Sequence record: PQ572755.1
From: Escherichia phage CAU_ECP01
Reading direction: 5' to 3' (one strand)
DNA length: 64,000 nucleotides
The notes under the pieces are model-generated. The model was not told where the DNA came from and did no database searches. It worked only from the letters and a program-made list of their open reading frames with translations. The position numbers and the translations under genes are program-made. Below are positions 2,904 to 57,689 of the stretch, piece by piece (the stretch's first letter is position 1; every line of letters begins with the position of its first letter).

Positions 2904-5159
2904 ATGCAAGTAACTAAGAGCAGTGGGGTATCCCAAAATTTTGATGCACAGAAAATTATTCAAGTATTAACTTGGCAATGTGAAGGAACACAAATTGACC
3001 CATATGAATTGTACGAAGAAATTAAGACCCATCTTGTCGACGGGATGAGCACCAAAGATATCCAGAAGATTTGTATTAAAGTTGCAGCTAACTCGATTTC
3101 TGTCGAAGAACCTGATTATCAGTATGTCGCCGCCAAAGGGCTAATGTTTGCACTTCGTAAAGATGTATATGGGCAGTTTGAACCGCCTGCTTTTATCGAC
3201 CATATTTCTTATTGTGTTAATGAAGGCAAATACGACCCTGAGCTGTTGTCTCAATATTCAGCAGAAGAAATCATTTATCTCGATTCACAGATTAAACATG
3301 AACGAGACTTTGACCTGACTTATGCTGGTGCTATGCAGCTTAAAGAAAAATATCTAGTTAAAGATAAAACAACTGGGAAGATTTATGAAACTCCACAGTT
3401 TGCTATCATGGCTATTGGCATGGCCTTACATCAAGACGAAACTCATGACCGTTTGAAACATATTATTCGTTTTTATGATGCCGTTTCTACTCATCAAGTT
3501 TCATTGCCAACCCCAATTATGGCAGGTGCTCGTACTCCAACTCGCCAGTTCTCTAGTTGTGTAGTTATTGAAGCCGGTGATTCGTTAAAATCTATTAACA
3601 AAACTTCAGCATCAATTATTGAATATATTTCTAAACGAGCTGGTATCGGTATCAACGTTGGTATGCTTCGTGCAGAAGGTTCTAAGATCGGTATGGGTGA
3701 AGTTCGACATACAGGTGTTATTCCATTCTGGAAACATTTCCAAACTGCAGTAAAATCTTGTTCTCAAGGTGGTATTCGTGGTGGTGCTGCTACAGCGTAT
3801 TATCCGATGTGGCACTTAGAAGTAGAGAACCTATTAGTTCTGAAAAATAACAAAGGCGTGGATGAAAACCGTATTAGACATATGGACTACGGAATTCAGA
3901 TTAATGACCTTATGATGGAACGCCTTGGTAAAAATGATTATATTACTTTATTTAGCCCTCACGAAATGTCAGGCGAACTATACTACTCGTTCTTTGAAGA
4001 TCAAGATAAATTCCGTGAGCTTTATGAGAAAGCTGAAAAAGACCCAACAATCAGAAAGAAAAGAATCAAAGCACTAGAACTCTTTGAATTGTTCATGACT
4101 GAACGCTCTGGTACTGCTCGAATTTATCCACAATTCGTTGATAACACGAACAACTACACTCCATTTATTCGTGAAAAAGCTCCAATTCGACAGAGTAACT
4201 TATGTTGTGAAATCGCTATTCCAACTAATGATGTGAATGGTCCTGATGCTGAAATTGGTTTATGTACGTTATCTGCTTTTGTATTAGATAAATTTGATTG
4301 GCAAGACCAAGATAAAATTAATGAACTGGCCGAAGTACAAGTACGTGCACTTGATAACTTGTTAGACTATCAAGATTATCCGGTTCCAGAAGCTTTAAAA
4401 GCTAAAAAGCGTCGAAATCTCGGTGTTGGTGTGACGAACTATGCCGCATGGTTAGCTTCTAACTTTGCTTCATATGAAGACGCTAACGATTTGACTCATG
4501 AATTGTTTGAGAGATTGCAATATGGCCTTATCAAAGCTTCAATCAAACTCGCCAAAGAAAAAGGACCTTGTGAGTATTATTCAGACACTAAATGGTCTAG
4601 AGGCGAATTACCTATCGACTGGTACAATAAAAAGATTGACCAAATCACAGCCCCGAACTACGTCTGTGACTGGGAAGAACTTCGAGCTGAACTCAAAGAA
4701 CATGGAATTCGTAACAGCACACTTAGTGCTCTCATGCCATGCGAATCAAGCAGTCAAGTCTCAAATAGCACAAACGGTATAGAGCCACCTCGTGGACCTG
4801 TAAGTATTAAAGAATCTAAAGAAGGCAACTTCCGACAGGTTGTTCCTAATATTGAACACAACATGGGTCTTTATGACTATGCGTGGAAACTCGCTAAGAA
4901 AGGTAATAAGCCTTATCTGACACAAGTTGTTATCATGTTAAAATGGGTGTGCCAATCTGCTTCTGCTAATACATACTACGACCCTTCAGTCTTTGAGAAA
5001 GGCAAAGTGCCAATGTCTGTAATGCTTGATGACTTGCTTTACTTCTGGTACTTTGGTGGTAAGAACCTTTACTATCATAACACTCGAGATGGTTCTGGTA
5101 CAGATGACTATGAGTTAGAAACGCCTAAAGCTGAAGATTGCTCCGCTTGTAAGCTTTAA
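2904..5159 (+). CDS. nrdA: aerobic ribonucleotide reductase large subunit
   Basis: 751 aa; class Ia RNR alpha with ATP-cone N-terminus and C-terminal CxxC tail (CSACKL); T4 NrdA-like. Confidence 0.95.
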   Translation: MQVTKSSGVSQNFDAQKIIQVLTWQCEGTQIDPYELYEEIKTHLVDGMSTKDIQKICIKVAANSISVEEPDYQYVAAKGLMFALRKDVYGQFEPPAFIDHISYCVNEGKYDPELLSQYSAEEIIYLDSQIKHERDFDLTYAGAMQLKEKYLVKDKTTGKIYETPQFAIMAIGMALHQDETHDRLKHIIRFYDAVSTHQVSLPTPIMAGARTPTRQFSSCVVIEAGDSLKSINKTSASIIEYISKRAGIGINVGMLRAEGSKIGMGEVRHTGVIPFWKHFQTAVKSCSQGGIRGGAATAYYPMWHLEVENLLVLKNNKGVDENRIRHMDYGIQINDLMMERLGKNDYITLFSPHEMSGELYYSFFEDQDKFRELYEKAEKDPTIRKKRIKALELFELFMTERSGTARIYPQFVDNTNNYTPFIREKAPIRQSNLCCEIAIPTNDVNGPDAEIGLCTLSAFVLDKFDWQDQDKINELAEVQVRALDNLLDYQDYPVPEALKAKKRRNLGVGVTNYAAWLASNFASYEDANDLTHELFERLQYGLIKASIKLAKEKGPCEYYSDTKWSRGELPIDWYNKKIDQITAPNYVCDWEELRAELKEHGIRNSTLSALMPCESSSQVSNSTNGIEPPRGPVSIKESKEGNFRQVVPNIEHNMGLYDYAWKLAKKGNKPYLTQVVIMLKWVCQSASANTYYDPSVFEKGKVPMSVMLDDLLYFWYFGGKNLYYHNTRDGSGTDDYELETPKAEDCSACKL

Positions 5160-5175
5160 GAATTTTGTTTATAAT
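5152..5175 (+). promoter_or_regulatory. putative middle promoter for nrdB
   Basis: AGCTTTA (MotA-box-like) 5152-5158 overlapping nrdA stop; TATAAT 5170-5175. Confidence 0.4.
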
Positions 5176-5193
5176 TGACTCATGGATGAGTCA
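5176..5193 (+). promoter_or_regulatory. perfect palindrome TGACTCAT-GG-ATGAGTCA in nrdB leader (candidate operator)
   Basis: 8-bp arms with 2-bp spacer, immediately 3-prime of the -10 and 17 nt before the nrdB ATG. Confidence 0.4.
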
Positions 5194-5209
5194 CTATTGA
5201 GAGAATATA

Positions 5210-6388
5210 ATGAGTACAGTTTTTAATACCCAAAAAGTTGATGTTTTGAATGAACCAATGTTCTTTGGTTCCGGTCTTGGCCTTGCGCGTTACGATATTC
5301 AACGCCATAAAGTTTTTGAAGAGCTTATTGAAAAGCAATTGTCGTTTTTTTGGCGCCCTGAAGAGGTAAACTTGATGTTGGACTCTGCGCAGTTCAATAA
5401 GCTTCCACAGTTCCAACAGAACATCTTTACGAACAACCTTAAGTATCAATCATTATTGGATTCTATCCAAGGCAGGGCACCATCTGCGGTACTTATGGCA
5501 TTGCTTTCCGACCCTTCATTAGATACATGGGTTGCTACATGGACATTCAGTGAAACCATTCACTCTCGTTCATATACTCATATCATGCGAAATCTTTATA
5601 CTGATCCATCGAAGGTATTTGATGAGATTGTATTAGATGAAGCAATTATGAAACGTGCGGAATCAATCGGCAAATATTATGATGATGTTCTAGTTAAAAC
5701 ACGTGAATGGGAAAATGCTAAAGAAATTTTTAAATGTTTTTCCGAAAATGAATATGATTTGGATGCATATTCAAATAGTCTTATGCATGTGGAAGAATGT
5801 AAACGTGCATTAATGAAATCTCTTTATCTCTGTTTACATGTTATCAACGCCTTAGAAGCTATTCGTTTTTACGTATCATTTGCATGTACTTTCAACTTCC
5901 ATAAGAACATGGAAATCATGGAAGGTAATGCAAAGATTATGAAGTTTATCGCTCGTGACGAACAACTCCACCTTAAAGGCACTCAGTACATTATTCGACA
6001 GCTCCAACTTGGTGTTGATGGGGATGAATGGGTTCAAATTGCTAAAGAGTGTGAGCAAGAAGCAGTAGATATCTTTATGGAAGTAAATAGTCAAGAGAAG
6101 GAATGGGCTGCACACCTCTTTAAAGATGGTACATGTCCAGGTATCAATACGCAGAGTATGTGTGCTTTTGTTGATTACTTGACTGTGTCTCGTATGAAAC
6201 AGTGCGGTTTGCCATGCCCAATCACTGATGCTCCGACCAAGCATCCGTATCCTTGGATTCGTGAATATCTGAACTCAGATTTAGTTCAAGCAGCTCCTCA
6301 GGAAGTTGAAATCAGTTCTTATCTTGTCGCACAAATTGATAATGATGTAGACCAAAATGTAATCAATTCATACAAAAAATATTTCTAA
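5210..6388 (+). CDS. nrdB: ribonucleotide reductase small subunit, uninterrupted (no intron)
   Basis: 392 aa; diiron/tyrosyl-radical R2 family; continuous ORF at T4-like length. Confidence 0.95.
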   Translation: MSTVFNTQKVDVLNEPMFFGSGLGLARYDIQRHKVFEELIEKQLSFFWRPEEVNLMLDSAQFNKLPQFQQNIFTNNLKYQSLLDSIQGRAPSAVLMALLSDPSLDTWVATWTFSETIHSRSYTHIMRNLYTDPSKVFDEIVLDEAIMKRAESIGKYYDDVLVKTREWENAKEIFKCFSENEYDLDAYSNSLMHVEECKRALMKSLYLCLHVINALEAIRFYVSFACTFNFHKNMEIMEGNAKIMKFIARDEQLHLKGTQYIIRQLQLGVDGDEWVQIAKECEQEAVDIFMEVNSQEKEWAAHLFKDGTCPGINTQSMCAFVDYLTVSRMKQCGLPCPITDAPTKHPYPWIREYLNSDLVQAAPQEVEISSYLVAQIDNDVDQNVINSYKKYF

Positions 6389-6392
6389 GGAC

Positions 6393-6406
6393 GGGACTTC
6401 GGTCCC
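6393..6406 (+). other. UUCG-tetraloop stem-loop (GGGAC-UUCG-GUCCC) after nrdB, no U-tract
   Basis: Perfect 5-bp GC stem with UUCG loop 5 nt after nrdB stop. Confidence 0.5.
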
Positions 6407-6414
6407 ACTTTATT

Positions 6415-6825
6415 ATGAAAGATATTGCCGCCGAATATTCCTTTATTAAATATACAGAATTGGAGCTATTAGAAGATGCAACAATTAAAACAGTTGATGT
6501 CCCTAATAAGAAAAATGTCATATACGCTATTGCTATAGATGACGAACTTGTGTATATTGGTAAAACCAAGAATTTAAAGAAACGCATTAACTATTATCGA
6601 ACAGCCATAAATCGAAAAGACCAGACTTCAGATTCAAGAAAATCACTTATGATTTTGGATGCCTTAATGCAAGGCAAAAAGGTTGAATTCTGGGCCCGCC
6701 AATGTTTTGACCTTTCAGTCACCAACGAACTTGGTTCAATGACCATCGCAACAATGGACCTTGAAGAACCGCTTTTTATCAAAAAGTTCAACCCGCCTTG
6801 GAATATCCAACATAAGAAAAAGTAG
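6415..6825 (+). CDS. denA: endonuclease II (GIY-YIG nuclease)
   Basis: 136 aa as in T4 DenA; GIY-YIG-like motif VIYAIAIDDELVYIGKTKNLKKRINYY; position after nrdB as in T4. Confidence 0.8.
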   Translation: MKDIAAEYSFIKYTELELLEDATIKTVDVPNKKNVIYAIAIDDELVYIGKTKNLKKRINYYRTAINRKDQTSDSRKSLMILDALMQGKKVEFWARQCFDLSVTNELGSMTIATMDLEEPLFIKKFNPPWNIQHKKK

Positions 6826-6854
6826 TTTACATACCACAAGGATTGTGGTACAAT
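6825..6854 (+). promoter_or_regulatory. T4-type early promoter
   Basis: GTTTAC 6825-6830 overlapping denA stop TAG; 18-bp spacer; TACAAT 6849-6854; spacer inverted repeat ACCACA/TGTGGT. Confidence 0.6.
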
Positions 6855-8007: not shown

Positions 8008-8037
8008 GTTTACAAACACCAAGGAAGGTGTTACTAT
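8008..8037 (+). promoter_or_regulatory. T4-type early promoter
   Basis: GTTTAC 8008-8013, 18-bp spacer, TACTAT 8032-8037; spacer inverted repeat ACACC/GGTGT. Confidence 0.6.
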
Positions 8038-9199: not shown

Positions 9200-9414
9200 C
9201 TAAAGAACAGCATGAATACATTAAAGGGCTTATCTATGAATCTGAAATGGCGGCTATGATTTATGGGCGCCAGATTCAACGATTAGAATCTTTGCCTCCG
9301 ACTAATGACCGCTTGTTAGTTCAGTCTCGTGCTAATCTGAAAAATGAATATCAGAATAAGTGGGCAGTAGCGACTAAAGCTCTTCACGAGTATATTGAAT
9401 CTTTAGTAAAATAG
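9190..9414 (+). CDS. hypothetical protein
   Basis: 74-aa ORF overlapping o-spanin end by 10 nt. Confidence 0.4.
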   Translation: MPMTKEQHEYIKGLIYESEMAAMIYGRQIQRLESLPPTNDRLLVQSRANLKNEYQNKWAVATKALHEYIESLVK

Positions 9415-9443
9415 TTTACAAACTCTCAGGAGCAGAGTATAAT
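9414..9443 (+). promoter_or_regulatory. T4-type early promoter
   Basis: GTTTAC 9414-9419 overlapping upstream stop TAG; TATAAT 9438-9443; GGAGC/GCTCC inverted repeat flanks the -10. Confidence 0.6.
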
Positions 9444-11539: not shown

Positions 11540-11569
11540 GTTTACAACATGGTGGAGTTGTGATACTAT
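11540..11569 (+). promoter_or_regulatory. T4-type early promoter
   Basis: GTTTAC 11540-11545, 18-bp spacer, TACTAT 11564-11569; near-perfect inverted repeat GGTGGAGTT/AACTCTACC. Confidence 0.6.
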
Positions 11570-14933: not shown

Positions 14934-14938
14934 TTTTA

Positions 14939-14960
14939 GGGAGACTTCGGTCTCCCTTTT
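14939..14960 (+). terminator. intrinsic terminator, GGGAGAC-UUCG-GUCUCCC plus U-tract
   Basis: 7-bp GC stem, UUCG tetraloop, TTTT at 14957-14960. Confidence 0.8.
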
Positions 14961-14992: not shown

Positions 14993-15021
14993 GTTTACTC
15001 TCCTGTAGGATGTGTTACTAT
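14993..15021 (+). promoter_or_regulatory. T4-type early promoter
   Basis: GTTTAC 14993-14998, 17-bp spacer, TACTAT 15016-15021. Confidence 0.6.
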
Positions 15022-15907: not shown

Positions 15908-16522
15908 ATGTTTAAAGTTAATACTTTTTATAAAATGAATTTTAAAAATGGGGATATTACTCCACGCCTTAAAAACATGTTCTCATATGACCTTATCGAG
16001 CCTTTTGAAGTTTTAGAAGTTACTGATGCCGGCTCAGTTTGTGAAATTAGAACTTCTGAAGGTAAAATTTATCAGGCAGGTGTCGGTAAATTCAGTAATT
16101 GTTTTACTTTAATATTCTCGACTGATTTAGATGAGCATTTTATTGAATGCCCTAACCCTAAGGTCTACGAAGTTCCACATCAAGAAATTAAGAAAAATGG
16201 CCCGCACGAATATACGAAGGTTGAAACTCCTCACGGCGTGATGTGGCGTCATAACTCTCCTTTTGGAAGTAAAGGAACATTTGCTCAACCGTCTAAACCT
16301 TATGACGATGAAAAATACATCGTCGTCTTTTTATCTGAACAGGGTACTCAAGACCGTGGATGCCAACGAAGTGGTTTACTAAGTGAACTTGAAGCTCATA
16401 ACCAAGCACGTGAATTCGTTGAGAAAAATCCTGGTTCTGAAGCTCTAGTCATGAAAGCAATTACTCAATATATCACTGCTCAACCTGTTGTTCATCCGGT
16501 AGAAATTAATTTCGTTAAGTAG
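15908..16522 (+). CDS. hypothetical protein
   Basis: 204-aa ORF. Confidence 0.5.
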   Translation: MFKVNTFYKMNFKNGDITPRLKNMFSYDLIEPFEVLEVTDAGSVCEIRTSEGKIYQAGVGKFSNCFTLIFSTDLDEHFIECPNPKVYEVPHQEIKKNGPHEYTKVETPHGVMWRHNSPFGSKGTFAQPSKPYDDEKYIVVFLSEQGTQDRGCQRSGLLSELEAHNQAREFVEKNPGSEALVMKAITQYITAQPVVHPVEINFVK

Positions 16523-16552
16523 TTTACATCCAAGGACGGATTAGAGTATAAT
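16522..16552 (+). promoter_or_regulatory. T4-type early promoter
   Basis: GTTTAC 16522-16527 directly after upstream stop TAG; TATAAT 16547-16552. Confidence 0.55.
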
Positions 16553-20260: not shown

Positions 20261-22348
20261 ATGTCTGAACAATTAAATGAAGTGTTTGAATCTGAAGGCA
20301 GTCTTCCTGTCGTCAATTTGAACCCTAAAGCTAAAGTTCCACAAGTCTGGAAAATTGGTGATATCGATACAAACATCGTAGTCCGTTTATTCTCTTACCT
20401 TTCCGAAGGCGATGCTGTAAAACAAGTTAAACTTGGTGACAAATACGCTCATGTCGTTATTATGAGTCTGTCTGAAAAGGGTAATCTCGCTGAATTGAAA
20501 AATGGCCTTGGTCCTGCTCCTATTGATGCAATCAACACCATTTTCAATACAGTGTATGAACAGGTTAAAGCTCTTCGTATGGATGCAGTTCTGTTCCGAT
20601 TCCCTACCAAGAAATTGAAAGGACGTGGACAGCAGCTTCAAACTCTTCTTGCTCGTTTAGTTTCTACTAAAACTGGTGGTCGTTTTAAAGTGTTGTCGGC
20701 AATGTATCAATTCACAGGTAAACACACCTATGTGATGATGGTTCGTAAAAATGCCAACATTGAAGATATTAAAGGCATCCCTAACATTAACACAGAGTTG
20801 TACACGAAAGTAGATTCTGATGTTGGCGAAGTTTATGTGAGTAAAAAGACTGGTGAAAAGGTCACCAAAGAAACGGCTATCGCTGGTTCTATTGCTGCTG
20901 TAGAAGAAAAACGTAAAGATAAGCCTGTTATTGCTCGTACTAAAATTTCTCGTCGTGCTATTGCAGCAAGTCAATCTTTAGAAGCTGACCGACAAGAAGG
21001 TGAGTTATTCCAGAAATACGAAAATTCTGCTAAAGAAGTTAGTGGCCCAGCTACAGCCGAATTACTTCCTGAAGCATATGAAATTGTACTAGCCCAAGCA
21101 TCGTCCACAGCAAAAGGCACTTTAGTTGCTGATATCGAAAATAAGATTTATAATCGTATTGATGAATCCTTTAAATTTGCTGATGAAGTTTCTTATGGTA
21201 GTGTTATTAAGCCGACTTTAGAAAAGTTTGCTAAGAAAATTAAAACTGAAAAAACAACATCTGTTAAAGCATTAGCCGCTTTTGTTGAAGCTGCAAACGA
21301 AATTGCAGACTCTATTAGAGACGAATGGTTTGAAGATTTTAGACGTGATAATTTCCAACTGCCTGACGATGTTTTAGCTGAAGTATCTGAAAGAACTTGG
21401 AAACAACGTAAATCAGCGTTCTTGTCTAATGTGATGTATACTTATGCACGAGAATCGGCTAGAGGCACCTTTAATATAACAATGAATCGGGACCCTAAAC
21501 AATACTCTGTTGCTGAAAAACGAGCTATTCGTGAATATGCCTCTTCTGCGTATACCGATATCAATAATATGTTGTTAGGTCGTTATAAACCAGATTTTTA
21601 CGATGTTGCAGATGAAGATGAAGTTAAACGCGCTATTGATGGTCTTGATTCGGCGTTTTTAAATGGAGACCGTTTACCTGAAGGACTAACGTTATATAGA
21701 GCTCAGTCTATCAGAATGCCTATTTACGAAGCAATGGTTAAAAATAAGGTATTCTACTTCAGAAACTATGTTTCCACTTCACTAGCTCCTATTATTTTCG
21801 GTGGGTTTAAAGAGAACGTTGCCCTTGGACTTGCTCCTGAAGAAGTTCGCAAAGAGCTTAACATTGACAATAATGACGAAGGTGTTACTATTTCTCCTAG
21901 TCAAGTAAGAACAGCTATGCATGCACCAGAACAAATCCGTGTTAACGTTGGATGGGCTATTGATGGCGCCCATAAAGTTAACGTGATTTATCCAGGACAG
22001 TTGAGTAATCACCCTAATGAGCAAGAAATTATTTTGCCTAGAGGCATTCTCTTGCAGATAAATAAAATTACAGATGCGTCATCTGACACTGGTGCAGGTT
22101 TAGAATCCAACCTTAAATTTATTCAAGCTGAAGTCATGTCCTCAGACCAGTTGGATGAAGCTGTCATTTACGATGGTGATGTTCTCATGGAAACAGGCGA
22201 GGTGGTTGCTATGACGGGTGAAATCGAATCAGATGAGCCGGTATCGTTCTCCTCATTTGTAGAAAAAACTAGTGCTCCTAAAGGATTGAAACTGTTAGCA
22301 TCTTTAATGGATTTGGAATCGGTTCCGTTTAAATTTGTTCAAGGATAG
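20261..22348 (+). CDS. alt: ADP-ribosyltransferase Alt (head-packaged)
   Basis: 695 aa; position between gene 30 and gene 54 as in T4; ART-like R / S-T-S / E motifs (LYRAQS, YVSTSL, QEIILPRG). Confidence 0.75.
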   Translation: MSEQLNEVFESEGSLPVVNLNPKAKVPQVWKIGDIDTNIVVRLFSYLSEGDAVKQVKLGDKYAHVVIMSLSEKGNLAELKNGLGPAPIDAINTIFNTVYEQVKALRMDAVLFRFPTKKLKGRGQQLQTLLARLVSTKTGGRFKVLSAMYQFTGKHTYVMMVRKNANIEDIKGIPNINTELYTKVDSDVGEVYVSKKTGEKVTKETAIAGSIAAVEEKRKDKPVIARTKISRRAIAASQSLEADRQEGELFQKYENSAKEVSGPATAELLPEAYEIVLAQASSTAKGTLVADIENKIYNRIDESFKFADEVSYGSVIKPTLEKFAKKIKTEKTTSVKALAAFVEAANEIADSIRDEWFEDFRRDNFQLPDDVLAEVSERTWKQRKSAFLSNVMYTYARESARGTFNITMNRDPKQYSVAEKRAIREYASSAYTDINNMLLGRYKPDFYDVADEDEVKRAIDGLDSAFLNGDRLPEGLTLYRAQSIRMPIYEAMVKNKVFYFRNYVSTSLAPIIFGGFKENVALGLAPEEVRKELNIDNNDEGVTISPSQVRTAMHAPEQIRVNVGWAIDGAHKVNVIYPGQLSNHPNEQEIILPRGILLQINKITDASSDTGAGLESNLKFIQAEVMSSDQLDEAVIYDGDVLMETGEVVAMTGEIESDEPVSFSSFVEKTSAPKGLKLLASLMDLESVPFKFVQG

Positions 22349-22377
22349 TTTACAAGCACATGGATGTGTGATACTAT
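22348..22377 (+). promoter_or_regulatory. T4-type early promoter
   Basis: GTTTAC 22348-22353 overlapping alt stop TAG; TACTAT 22372-22377; GGATG/CATCC inverted repeat flanks the -10. Confidence 0.6.
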
Positions 22378-22700: not shown

Positions 22701-22709
22701 ACCCCTAAA

Positions 22710-22733
22710 GGGAGACAACGTCTCCCTTTTTTT
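22710..22733. terminator. terminator between convergent genes (GGGAGA-CAACG-UCUCCC plus T7)
   Basis: Hairpin 22710-22726 followed by TTTTTTT; lies between the plus-strand ORF and gene 54. Confidence 0.7.
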
Positions 22734-26587: not shown

Positions 26588-27117
26588 TCAAGCAATCCAA
26601 TAATTTCTGCTATACCCTTAATAGGACCATTAGGGCCTGGAATAGCAATAGTTGTCGAAAGGTCTTCTGCCCATTTGATTACAAAAGCAGGCATCTCAAG
26701 GAAAGAAATTTCTTTCTCTTCGTCATTAACTTTTATTAAGCAATTTGATAACATTTCACTGATTGTAGCGAATTGTTCAAATTTGCCTGGAGGTCTAAAA
26801 TAAAAAGTATTGCCTTGGAATTGGAATTCTGTTCGTTGGCATACATAGACGTCATCTAGCTTATATGTGAATCCGTCTTTTTCAACTTCAGACTTAAGTT
26901 TGTTATTAAATTCCAATATATGTAGACATGCAAAATCAAAATCAGCAGGACTCATATTTTTACAAATAGAATCAGCTAAGATTTTCATGTTTTCATCAGG
27001 GCCTTTAACGTCCTTTAAAAGATTATAATGTTTGAGCCCTAATTTGGGAATCATTACCTTTTTATTAGACTGTGGTAGAATTATTTTCTTTAGAGGTAGA
27101 ATCAGATTTAAGTTCAT
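26584..27117 (-). CDS. 28: baseplate hub distal subunit gp28
   Basis: 177 aa as in T4 gp28; alternative start at 27054 (156 aa) has a better SD and avoids the 53-nt overlap with gene 27. Confidence 0.65.
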
Positions 27118-36624: not shown

Positions 36625-36656
36625 AAAAAAGGGGACCTTTACGGTCCCCTTTTTTT
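36625..36656. terminator. bidirectional intrinsic terminator (A6-GGGGACC-uuuac-GGUCCCC-T7)
   Basis: 7-bp GC stem flanked by A-run and T-run, between convergent rnlB and gene 24. Confidence 0.8.
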
Positions 36657-38310: not shown

Positions 38311-38320
38311 AACCAAAAAT

Positions 38321-38338
38321 GGGAGACCGAAGTCTCCC
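38321..38338. terminator. terminator hairpin (GGGAGAC-UUCG-GUCUCCC on the minus strand), main terminator of gene 23
   Basis: Identical 18-nt hairpin to 14939-14956 and 57668-57685; U-rich tract follows on the minus strand. Confidence 0.7.
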
Positions 38339-38362
38339 AAAATAAGATTTAATCAATTAAGA

Positions 38363-57660: not shown

Positions 57661-57667
57661 CACGAAA

Positions 57668-57685
57668 GGGAGACCGAAGTCTCCC
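57668..57685 (-). terminator. UUCG hairpin (GGGAGAC-UUCG-GUCUCCC) after gene 8
   Basis: Third identical copy of the 18-nt hairpin; followed on the minus strand by UUUCG and the gene 9 late promoter. Confidence 0.5.
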
Positions 57686-57689
57686 TAAA

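Follow-up and report, generated by a model that had tools for sequence, protein, structure and literature searches.

Ribonucleotide reductase supplies the dNTPs for phage DNA synthesis, and the balance of its NrdA and NrdB subunits, together with the parts played in it by polycistronic and separate transcripts, has among T-even phages been studied in T4 only, to our knowledge. In Escherichia phage CAU_ECP01 (PQ572755.1) an inverted repeat sits between the -10 hexamer of the nrdB promoter and the nrdB start codon, which raises the question of whether it acts as a DNA operator or as an RNA structure, and on which transcripts. We analysed this repeat within a stretch of 64,000 nucleotides of the phage genome (the window). 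A 1-kb query around the repeat matches roughly 650 Tevenvirinae genomes in GenBank; identity is 100% with Enterobacteria phages ATK47 and ATK48 and with Escherichia phage LH01 and 90.6% with RB69, and the 98%-identical relative SA79RD is classed as a Mosigvirus (Straboviridae, Tevenvirinae); judged by these matches, the window phage is a Mosigvirus, an RB69-like T-even phage. The locus is laid out as follows:

2904-5159, plus strand: nrdA, large subunit of the aerobic ribonucleotide reductase (open reading frame and annotation of identical or near-identical phages)
5151-5158, plus strand: MotA-box-like element AAGCTTTA, overlapping the nrdA stop codon (sequence; SA79RD annotation; Wilson & Edgell 2009)
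5170-5175, plus strand: -10 hexamer TATAAT (sequence; TA(T/G/C)AAT lies 5' of the hairpin in 21/21 variants)
5176-5181, plus strand: hairpin 5' arm TGACTC, the putative promoter discriminator, positions -6 to -1 (sequence, covariation, folding)
5182-5187, plus strand: loop AUGGAU, an ANGGAN hexaloop (A, G, G and A invariant in 14/14 distinct aligned sequences)
5188-5193, plus strand: hairpin 3' arm GAGTCA, positions +7 to +12 of the predicted promoter-initiated RNA (sequence, covariation)
5199-5203, plus strand: nrdB Shine-Dalgarno (SD) sequence GAGAG, 6 nt 5' of the ATG, outside the hairpin and containing no GGA (sequence; folding; variant table)
5210-6388, plus strand: nrdB (open reading frame and annotation of related phages)

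The MotA-box-like element is encoded in the final nrdA codons, and its GCTT core (5153-5156) is followed after N13 by TATAAT, the arrangement of a MotA-dependent middle promoter (GCTT 13-15 nt before TAnnnT). The SA79RD record annotates the same site as a T4-type middle promoter, GCTT(N13-15)TATAAT, and an nrdB middle promoter has been placed here in phages that lack mobE (Wilson & Edgell 2009). Lineages with TGATATAAT have GCTT at a spacing of 11 nt, together with an extended-type -10. The repeat itself, TGACTCATGGATGAGTCA at 5176-5193, consists of two perfect 8-bp arms around GG, TGACTCAT-GG-ATGAGTCA. A sequence-only reading of the window had correctly placed it directly 3' of the TATAAT box with its MotA-box-like element and shortly upstream of the nrdB ATG; the separation is 16 nt, not 17, and the "perfect 18-bp palindrome" it described is not a true palindrome, since the central GG is not self-complementary. 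Its statement that no other intergenic region holds a comparable repeat does not survive a count: counting arms of 8 bp or more and loops of up to 8 nt, the window contains 21 perfect inverted repeats (mean of 10.7 in 15 dinucleotide shuffles), three others of them intergenic and nearby, and comparable repeats lie at 2846-2868 (9-bp arms, after the TATAAT of the nrdA promoter), 6832-6850 (before rnlA) and 36625-36655 (13-bp arms). From the shuffle rate, about 0.008 such repeats are expected by chance in a 50-nt spacer taken alone. The earlier observation is thus real but over-described, and although perfect repeats with 8-bp arms are not rare in the window, a chance palindrome is ruled out by the covariation reported below.

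To ask whether the repeat is conserved in related phages, the check that the sequence-only reading had proposed, we took regions around nrdB and the nrdA 3' end from IMG/VR, metagenomes and GenBank phages and inspected the sequence 3' of every nrdA stop codon without preselection; part of the variant set was gathered by a GGA-requiring search, and it is the unbiased listings after nrdA that show just one lineage departing from the motif. The answer is strongly positive at the level of structure. The 21 sequence variants compared come from Mosigvirus, Tequatrovirus, Dhakavirus, Karamvirus and uncultured relatives; their stems differ in sequence yet remain paired, the carriers including RB69 and ATK47 (Mosigvirus), RB14 (Tequatrovirus), dhaeg (Dhakavirus), PS49 (Karamvirus) and many uncultured phages, with stems as different as TGACTCA, GGACCA, GGACA, GGCTCA, GCTCA and AGGGATA. 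Fourteen distinct 22-nt sequences align gap-free, and over the 7 pairs of the stem 85.7% of the cells are paired, versus 65.5% in shuffles (0/500 shuffles reach the observed value); the covariation tool carries a caveat for related sequences, yet when the partner columns are slid by 1-3 positions, a control that retains the relatedness, paired cells collapse to 24-42%. Both sides have changed in 6 of the 7 pairs. At the four pair positions 5-18 to 8-15 pairing holds in 14/14 distinct sequences, and three of these positions occur with three different pair types; a C-G pair closes the loop in 13/14. Perfect 8-bp arms belong to one allele only, which the window phage shares with Dhakavirus, and the RB69-type allele, TTACTCAT-GG-ATGAGTTA, found in RB69, L040 and all six further Mosigvirus records, has a U.U at the second pair; the conserved core therefore consists of 4-6 pairs plus the loop. 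The loop reads A-Y-GGA-(U/C/A), with the A, G, G and A columns invariant, U or C before GGA, and U, C or A but never G after it in 21/21 variants; covariation between the two loop N positions was looked for in the alignment and none was seen.

The window RNA folds with a UGGA loop on a 7-bp stem or with the AUGGAU hexaloop on a stem of 6 bp (pairing of A5182 with U5187 is possible and leaves the UGGA tetraloop), with an MFE of -8.0 kcal/mol. A hairpin with GGA in its loop is predicted for all 14 distinct sequences, and predicted stabilities across the variants range from -3.3 to -9.4 kcal/mol. For most variants sense and antisense folding energies are similar, whereas in L013, L015 and L033 the sense strand gains 1.1-1.4 kcal/mol of stability over the antisense strand through G.U pairs; the assignment to the sense strand rests on these few G.U pairs, because folding energies are otherwise alike on both strands. 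We conclude with considerable confidence that the element is a selected hairpin and hold it likely that it acts as sense RNA, and the structural conservation supports the second reading offered for the repeat, an RNA structure in the nrdB leader. It belongs to no known RNA family: the single match in an Rfam search, csRNA, was at chance level (E = 1.7; 21 bits, the gathering score being 57; opposite strand). Nor is it a repeated genomic motif, as a covariance model built from the 14 variants finds this site alone at E < 1 in the 64-kb window; a look-alike on the minus strand (27002-27021) lies inside an open reading frame.

The hairpin is held in register with the promoter and not with the start codon. 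Counted from the end of the -10 hexamer, the invariant loop A comes at the 7th base in 16 of the 21 variants and at the 8th in the other 5, whereas the distance from stem to start codon varies from 10 to 26 nt; indels are thus tolerated 3' of the hairpin but not in the stretch that separates loop and -10. The element accordingly goes with the start site. A canonical sigma-70 start lies seven bases after the -10, and for this reason the invariant C-A probably represents -1/+1, with A5182 as the predicted transcription start of the window promoter.

Three arrangements after nrdA occur among T4-like phages. Nearly all T-even-type phages outside the mobE-bearing and the more distant groups have TA(T/G)AAT after nrdA and then a GGA-loop hairpin within 0-3 nt. 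Where an extra open reading frame separates nrdA from nrdB (L012, L013, L016, L018, L021, L026 and L066), the promoter-hairpin unit stays beside nrdA, 5' of the inserted frame, and nrdB is closely coupled to the insert. The element is therefore not specific to nrdB, contrary to the sequence-only reading. The inserts are unrelated small open reading frames placed 3' of the promoter-hairpin unit (L012/L034, 1094-1200; L013, L016, L018, L021, L026, L066), and by these arrangements the spacer downstream of the unit is a gene-insertion hotspot. In mobE-bearing phages (T4, LF82-1 and others) mobE begins at the nrdA stop (TAATG) and contains the nrdB promoter, which lacks an inverted repeat; in T4 this promoter is followed by AAATGTAAATTTAAGGATT. 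T4 lacks the hairpin because mobE occupies the site. The case of LF82-1 (L124, 560-1201) shows this in a Mosigvirus-like background: the phage is 93.9% identical to the window over the matching parts of the nrdA-nrdB query and has a homing endonuclease gene of the mobE type placed precisely at the nrdA stop, as does T4 (L125, T4T, 807-1505), the promoter-hairpin unit being deleted and the replacement nrdB promoter, GCTTTAAGATGGCATTATGAT inside the endonuclease gene, having no hairpin.

Two lineages depart from the common layout. In L032/L073 a terminator and an early-type promoter take its place. In the L029/L062/L129 lineage the hairpin after nrdA keeps the register but has a UUCG loop, and a GGA hairpin lies further on, directly before nrdB, giving two promoter-hairpin-SD units (L029, 728-1200; also L062 and L129): the first consists of T(G/A)TAAT and TGGGGAC-TTCG-GTCCCCA, 5' of an inserted open reading frame, and the second of TGCTATAAT ... 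TACAAT and GGCTC-ATGGAA-GAGCC, 5' of nrdB. If TGCTATAAT is the active promoter, the L029 transcript contains the whole GGA hairpin, which would favour a role of the loop that is independent of register. L129 was the one informative addition from a metagenome scan that returned mostly marine T4-like phages without the element. In more distant T4-like phages (NrdA C-terminus less than ~70% identical) nrdA is followed by a GC-rich hairpin with a UUCG or GNRA loop and a U-run.

What could read such a loop? In high-affinity targets of RsmE/CsrA a hairpin displays an ANGGAN hexaloop, the protein contacting its A and GGA while the N positions vary, and the CsrB repeats read CAGGA(U/A/C)G (PMC7652899). 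The window loop fits the CsrA consensus (A/U)CANGGANG(U/A), as do the invariant A and GGA across variants; UCAUGGAUGA of the window matches the RsmE-bound hcnA motif UCACGGAUGA (PMC5668361) at 9/10 positions, its counterpart in L013 is ACACGGAUGU, and the CsrB repeats, compared by eye, have the form stem-CAGGAUG-stem. The phage element thus resembles established CsrA/RsmE sites (glgC, the hcnA stem-loop PDB 2JPP, the CsrB/RsmZ repeats) as a short ANGGAN hairpin with U, A or C after GGA, and it resembles glgC also in lying shortly upstream of an SD sequence. It differs from them in its location in a lytic phage mRNA and in a stem longer than that of most CsrA ligands, and CsrA binding to it is putative. 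The glgC leader combines a high-affinity hairpin-loop site just 5' of the SD with a weaker site on the SD, and a second CsrA site usually overlaps the SD at a distance of 10-63 nt, while single-site targets exist as well (PMC7652899). Unlike glgC, the window lacks a second GGA at the SD, and so do 9 of the 21 variants; the window leader has none there or in the first 60 nt of nrdB, and a further GGA 3' of the hairpin occurs in 12/21 variants. Bridging of two sites as in glgC cannot be general, because only these 12 have a second GGA. In every sequence and structural property of CsrA sites testable here the phage loop agrees with them, and we regard it as a candidate site.

A model that joins this likeness to the promoter register runs as follows. 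The inverted repeat would encode a sense RNA stem-loop with a stem of 4-6 bp closed by C-G and the loop A-Y-G-G-A-N, kept in those T-even phages whose nrdA and nrdB are not separated by mobE. Its 5' arm would double as the discriminator of a sigma-70-type promoter (MotA-dependent or extended -10) after nrdA, so that RNA initiated there would start with AYGGA inside the loop and lack the 5' arm; since the invariant loop A is the expected +1, such RNA could not fold the hairpin. Read-through RNA from the nrdA promoter and from promoters further upstream would fold it. Read-through is to be expected because there is no terminator between the two genes: a terminator scan of the nrdA-nrdB spacer called none, and none is present in the spacer of phages without mobE (Wilson & Edgell). 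Host CsrA, or another reader of GGA loops, would then bind the read-through transcripts at the hairpin and alter translation or stability of the downstream cistron differently from that of promoter-initiated transcripts. With the promoter after nrdA built into a CsrA-type hairpin, only the polycistronic early RNA would display the high-affinity site. CsrB is reported to remain present and to be unusually stable during T4 infection, which argues that the Csr system persists in infected cells, the direction of any CsrA effect not being indicated thereby. Of the parts of this model, the hairpin with its covariation, the invariant loop, the fixed -10 register and the unmasked SD are observed, whereas we infer the start site, action as RNA rather than DNA, which molecule reads the loop and in which direction expression would change. 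The model as a whole, in which a CsrA-type site is displayed by read-through RNA specifically and modulates the cistron downstream, we put forward tentatively, at somewhat short of an even chance; that T-even phages use CsrA or another GGA-loop reader to tell read-through from promoter-initiated mRNA is possible, and we consider it rather doubtful.

Several observations temper this model. The invariant C-A could be a mere -1/+1 pyrimidine-purine, leaving GGA alone to explain; the UUCG loop of the L029/L062/L129 lineage means that a promoter-straddling hairpin is possible without GGA; and stems of 5-7 bp exceed those of most CsrA SELEX ligands (PMC7652899). A covariance model of the phage hairpins gave no matches to the CsrB hairpins, an unfair test in that the model demands a 7-bp stem and a 4-nt loop. 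A general AYGGA start-site motif was looked for at the other candidate MotA-type promoters of the window and not seen. Sequestering of the leader or SD, as had been suggested, is not supported: in 17 relatives SD accessibility was not consistently lower in the read-through than in the promoter-initiated context, which also disposes of masking through the extended helix of the window MFE fold, and the variation of the hairpin-to-AUG distance from 10 to 26 nt speaks against it too. A mini-ORF or leaderless AUG in the 3' arm (AUG AGU CAC UAU UGA in the window) is not conserved, the ACGGAC variants having no AUG.

The closest precedent for the promoter geometry is found in T4 itself. For genes e, soc, 49 and I-TevI the promoter lies in the DNA of the 5' arm, so that only transcripts from upstream promoters form the hairpin (PMC3014915). 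In likeness to these, the phage -10 directly adjoins the 5' arm and the loop A lies 7-8 nt after the -10 in all variants, the start being predicted. Those hairpins have late promoters (TATAAATA) and mask the SD or AUG, whereas the nrdB hairpin has a TATAAT-type promoter for prereplicative expression, a conserved loop sequence and a free SD, outside the stem and not in a helix. We know of no described CsrA site that is, like the phage element, locked to a promoter start site. The nrdB middle promoter described for T4 and for mobE-less phages has the same position (nrdA 3' end or nrdA-nrdB spacer) and gives nrdB its own transcript; in T4 it was reportedly mapped by Tseng et al. in 1990. The published descriptions of this promoter mention no hairpin, and a search of the literature found no description of an nrdA-nrdB promoter hairpin.

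The main rival to the CsrA-type model is a protein-independent structural hairpin in the intercistronic RNA whose conserved loop merely reflects a start-site constraint of the overlapping promoter. It could protect the nrdA message against 3' exonucleases, protect the nrdB message against 5'-end-dependent RNase E after cleavage in the AU-rich promoter, or insulate the nrdB ribosome-binding site from upstream pairing. A hairpin after nrdA seems to be a general feature, because the distant phages, with their GC-rich UUCG/GNRA hairpins and U-runs, and the mobE-bearing phages, with a terminator just inside mobE, have one too, likewise ~10-50 nt after the nrdA stop; the GGA hairpin stays with the nrdA 3' end when another open reading frame is inserted, one lineage has a UUCG loop in the same -10 register, and the nrdA promoter also has a hairpin (2846-2868) beginning at about +1. 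The hairpins of distant and mobE-bearing phages differ, though, in being GC-rich, with UUCG or GNRA-type loops and a U-run, and in not being fused to a -10 hexamer. Stabilities of -3.3 to -9.4 kcal/mol are weak for an exonuclease barrier, neither a barrier nor an insulator needs a fixed -10 register, and the invariant G-G-A at +3 to +5 in 21 variants is left unexplained while the stem turns over, the more so as the T4 nrdB promoter and the other candidate middle promoters of the window have no AYGGA at the start. On balance we think this reading unlikely, if deserving of serious weight.

A weak intrinsic terminator or attenuator that trims nrdA-to-nrdB read-through and so balances the subunits is improbable. 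The idea draws on the 3-4 U residues that follow some variants (L013, L018, L026) and on T4, where the mobE hairpin and its short U-tract end ~30% of transcripts and a coordination of NrdA and NrdB has been proposed; however, CUAUUGAG follows the window stem, whose tail CTATTGAG does not give the combination of GC-rich stem and U-run of an intrinsic terminator, the scan and the statement of Wilson & Edgell on mobE-less phages agree in this, and it is the loop that is conserved and not the U-tract. We give still less credence to a cleavage site for the phage endoribonuclease RegB that would cut early read-through RNA between nrdA and nrdB. GGA is the only absolutely conserved RegB determinant, GGAU is cleavable, and a site present only in read-through, early RNA would fit the action of RegB against early mRNAs; yet the RegB/S1 target is an 11-nt single-stranded GGAGRAYARAA with never a C at position 9, structured GGAG is resistant and GGAA poorly cut, whereas the window GGAUGAGUCAC has C at position 9 and is paired from position 4 or 5 on, and GGAG occurs in 0/21 variants, so that the hairpin does not present a RegB/S1 site.

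The sequence-only reading had also proposed a DNA-binding regulator, NrdR for example, or RegA. RegA targets are AU-rich and unstructured, and nothing at the hairpin points to RegA. The NrdR box is said to have been given by Rodionov and Gelfand in 2005 as a 16-bp consensus, acaCwAtATaTwGtgt, normally paired in a promoter. A double-stranded operator at the transcription start for a dimeric repressor, whether NrdR or a phage protein, would suit the overlap with +1 and the perfect 8-bp arms of the window phage, but is rejected as the least credible reading on the alignment evidence: the arms are replaced wholesale between lineages (TGACTCA, GGACCA, GGACA, GGCTCA, AGGGATA) with only their complementarity and the asymmetric centre CAYGGAWG conserved, RB69-type relatives break the dyad, and the window holds 0 matches to the NrdR box with up to 3 mismatches.

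Other hairpins of the window touch on these questions. At the nrdA promoter (2819-2868) CGCTT, N13 and TATAAT (2835-2840) are followed by the hairpin AACGGGATA-AATAC-TATCCCGTT with 9-bp arms, which begins 5 nt after the -10, at about the expected +1, and its first bases, AACGGGA, are similar to AYGGA at the nrdB site; a stem-loop may thus stand at the 5' end of nrdA transcripts. T4-type early promoters (GTTTAC ... TAnnAT; 6825-6854, 8008-8037, 9414-9443, 11540-11569, 14993-15021, 16522-16552 and 22348-22377) have GG(A) at a nearly fixed spacer position, ~10-11 nt after GTTTAC, and several have complementary arms overlapping the extended -10 that yield GGA-loop hairpins in read-through RNA (for example CCACA-AGGAT-TGTGG, ATCC-AAGGAC-GGAT and CACA-TGGA-TGTG). 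This GG(A) could be a DNA-level promoter consensus or represent further CsrA-like loops. The rnlA promoter of Tequatrovirus relatives has the same stem (CCACA-YGGAG-TGTGG), and an attempt at covariation for this hairpin found that relatives keep an identical stem or lack the promoter. Four hairpins share a near-identical stem, GGGAGAC ... GTCTCCC (14938-14957, 22707-22729, 38320-38339 and 57667-57686; loops TTCG, AAC, CGAA and CGAA), and look like members of a terminator or stabiliser family that the genome uses repeatedly. Directly after the nrdB stop, between nrdB and denA, 6393-6406 reads GGGAC-TTCG-GTCCC followed by ACTTTATTAT, a terminator-like C(UUCG)G hairpin.

What the element means for these phages depends on which reading holds. 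If it is a structural barrier only, it counts as one more ordinary hairpin between cistrons, and what the analysis then chiefly achieves is to remove the idea of a DNA operator or NrdR. The T4 spacer has been overwritten by a homing endonuclease gene, and the element was probably missed because mobE replaced it there; as a conserved, covarying cis-element at the nrdB promoter, it offers an easily mutated handle on subunit balance in RB69, T2 and their relatives. Two uses of RNA structure are known from the translation starts of T4, the masking of a ribosome-binding site and the bringing of a distant SD sequence near the start codon. If CsrA reads the loop, a protein-binding loop would be the third, and a major post-transcriptional regulator of the host would be linked to the lytic phage programme. 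Should this be true, the small subunit of ribonucleotide reductase, or any gene inserted at the site, would come under Csr control, the first such case in a virulent phage, and the logic of the T4 gene e hairpin would here work with the help of a protein.
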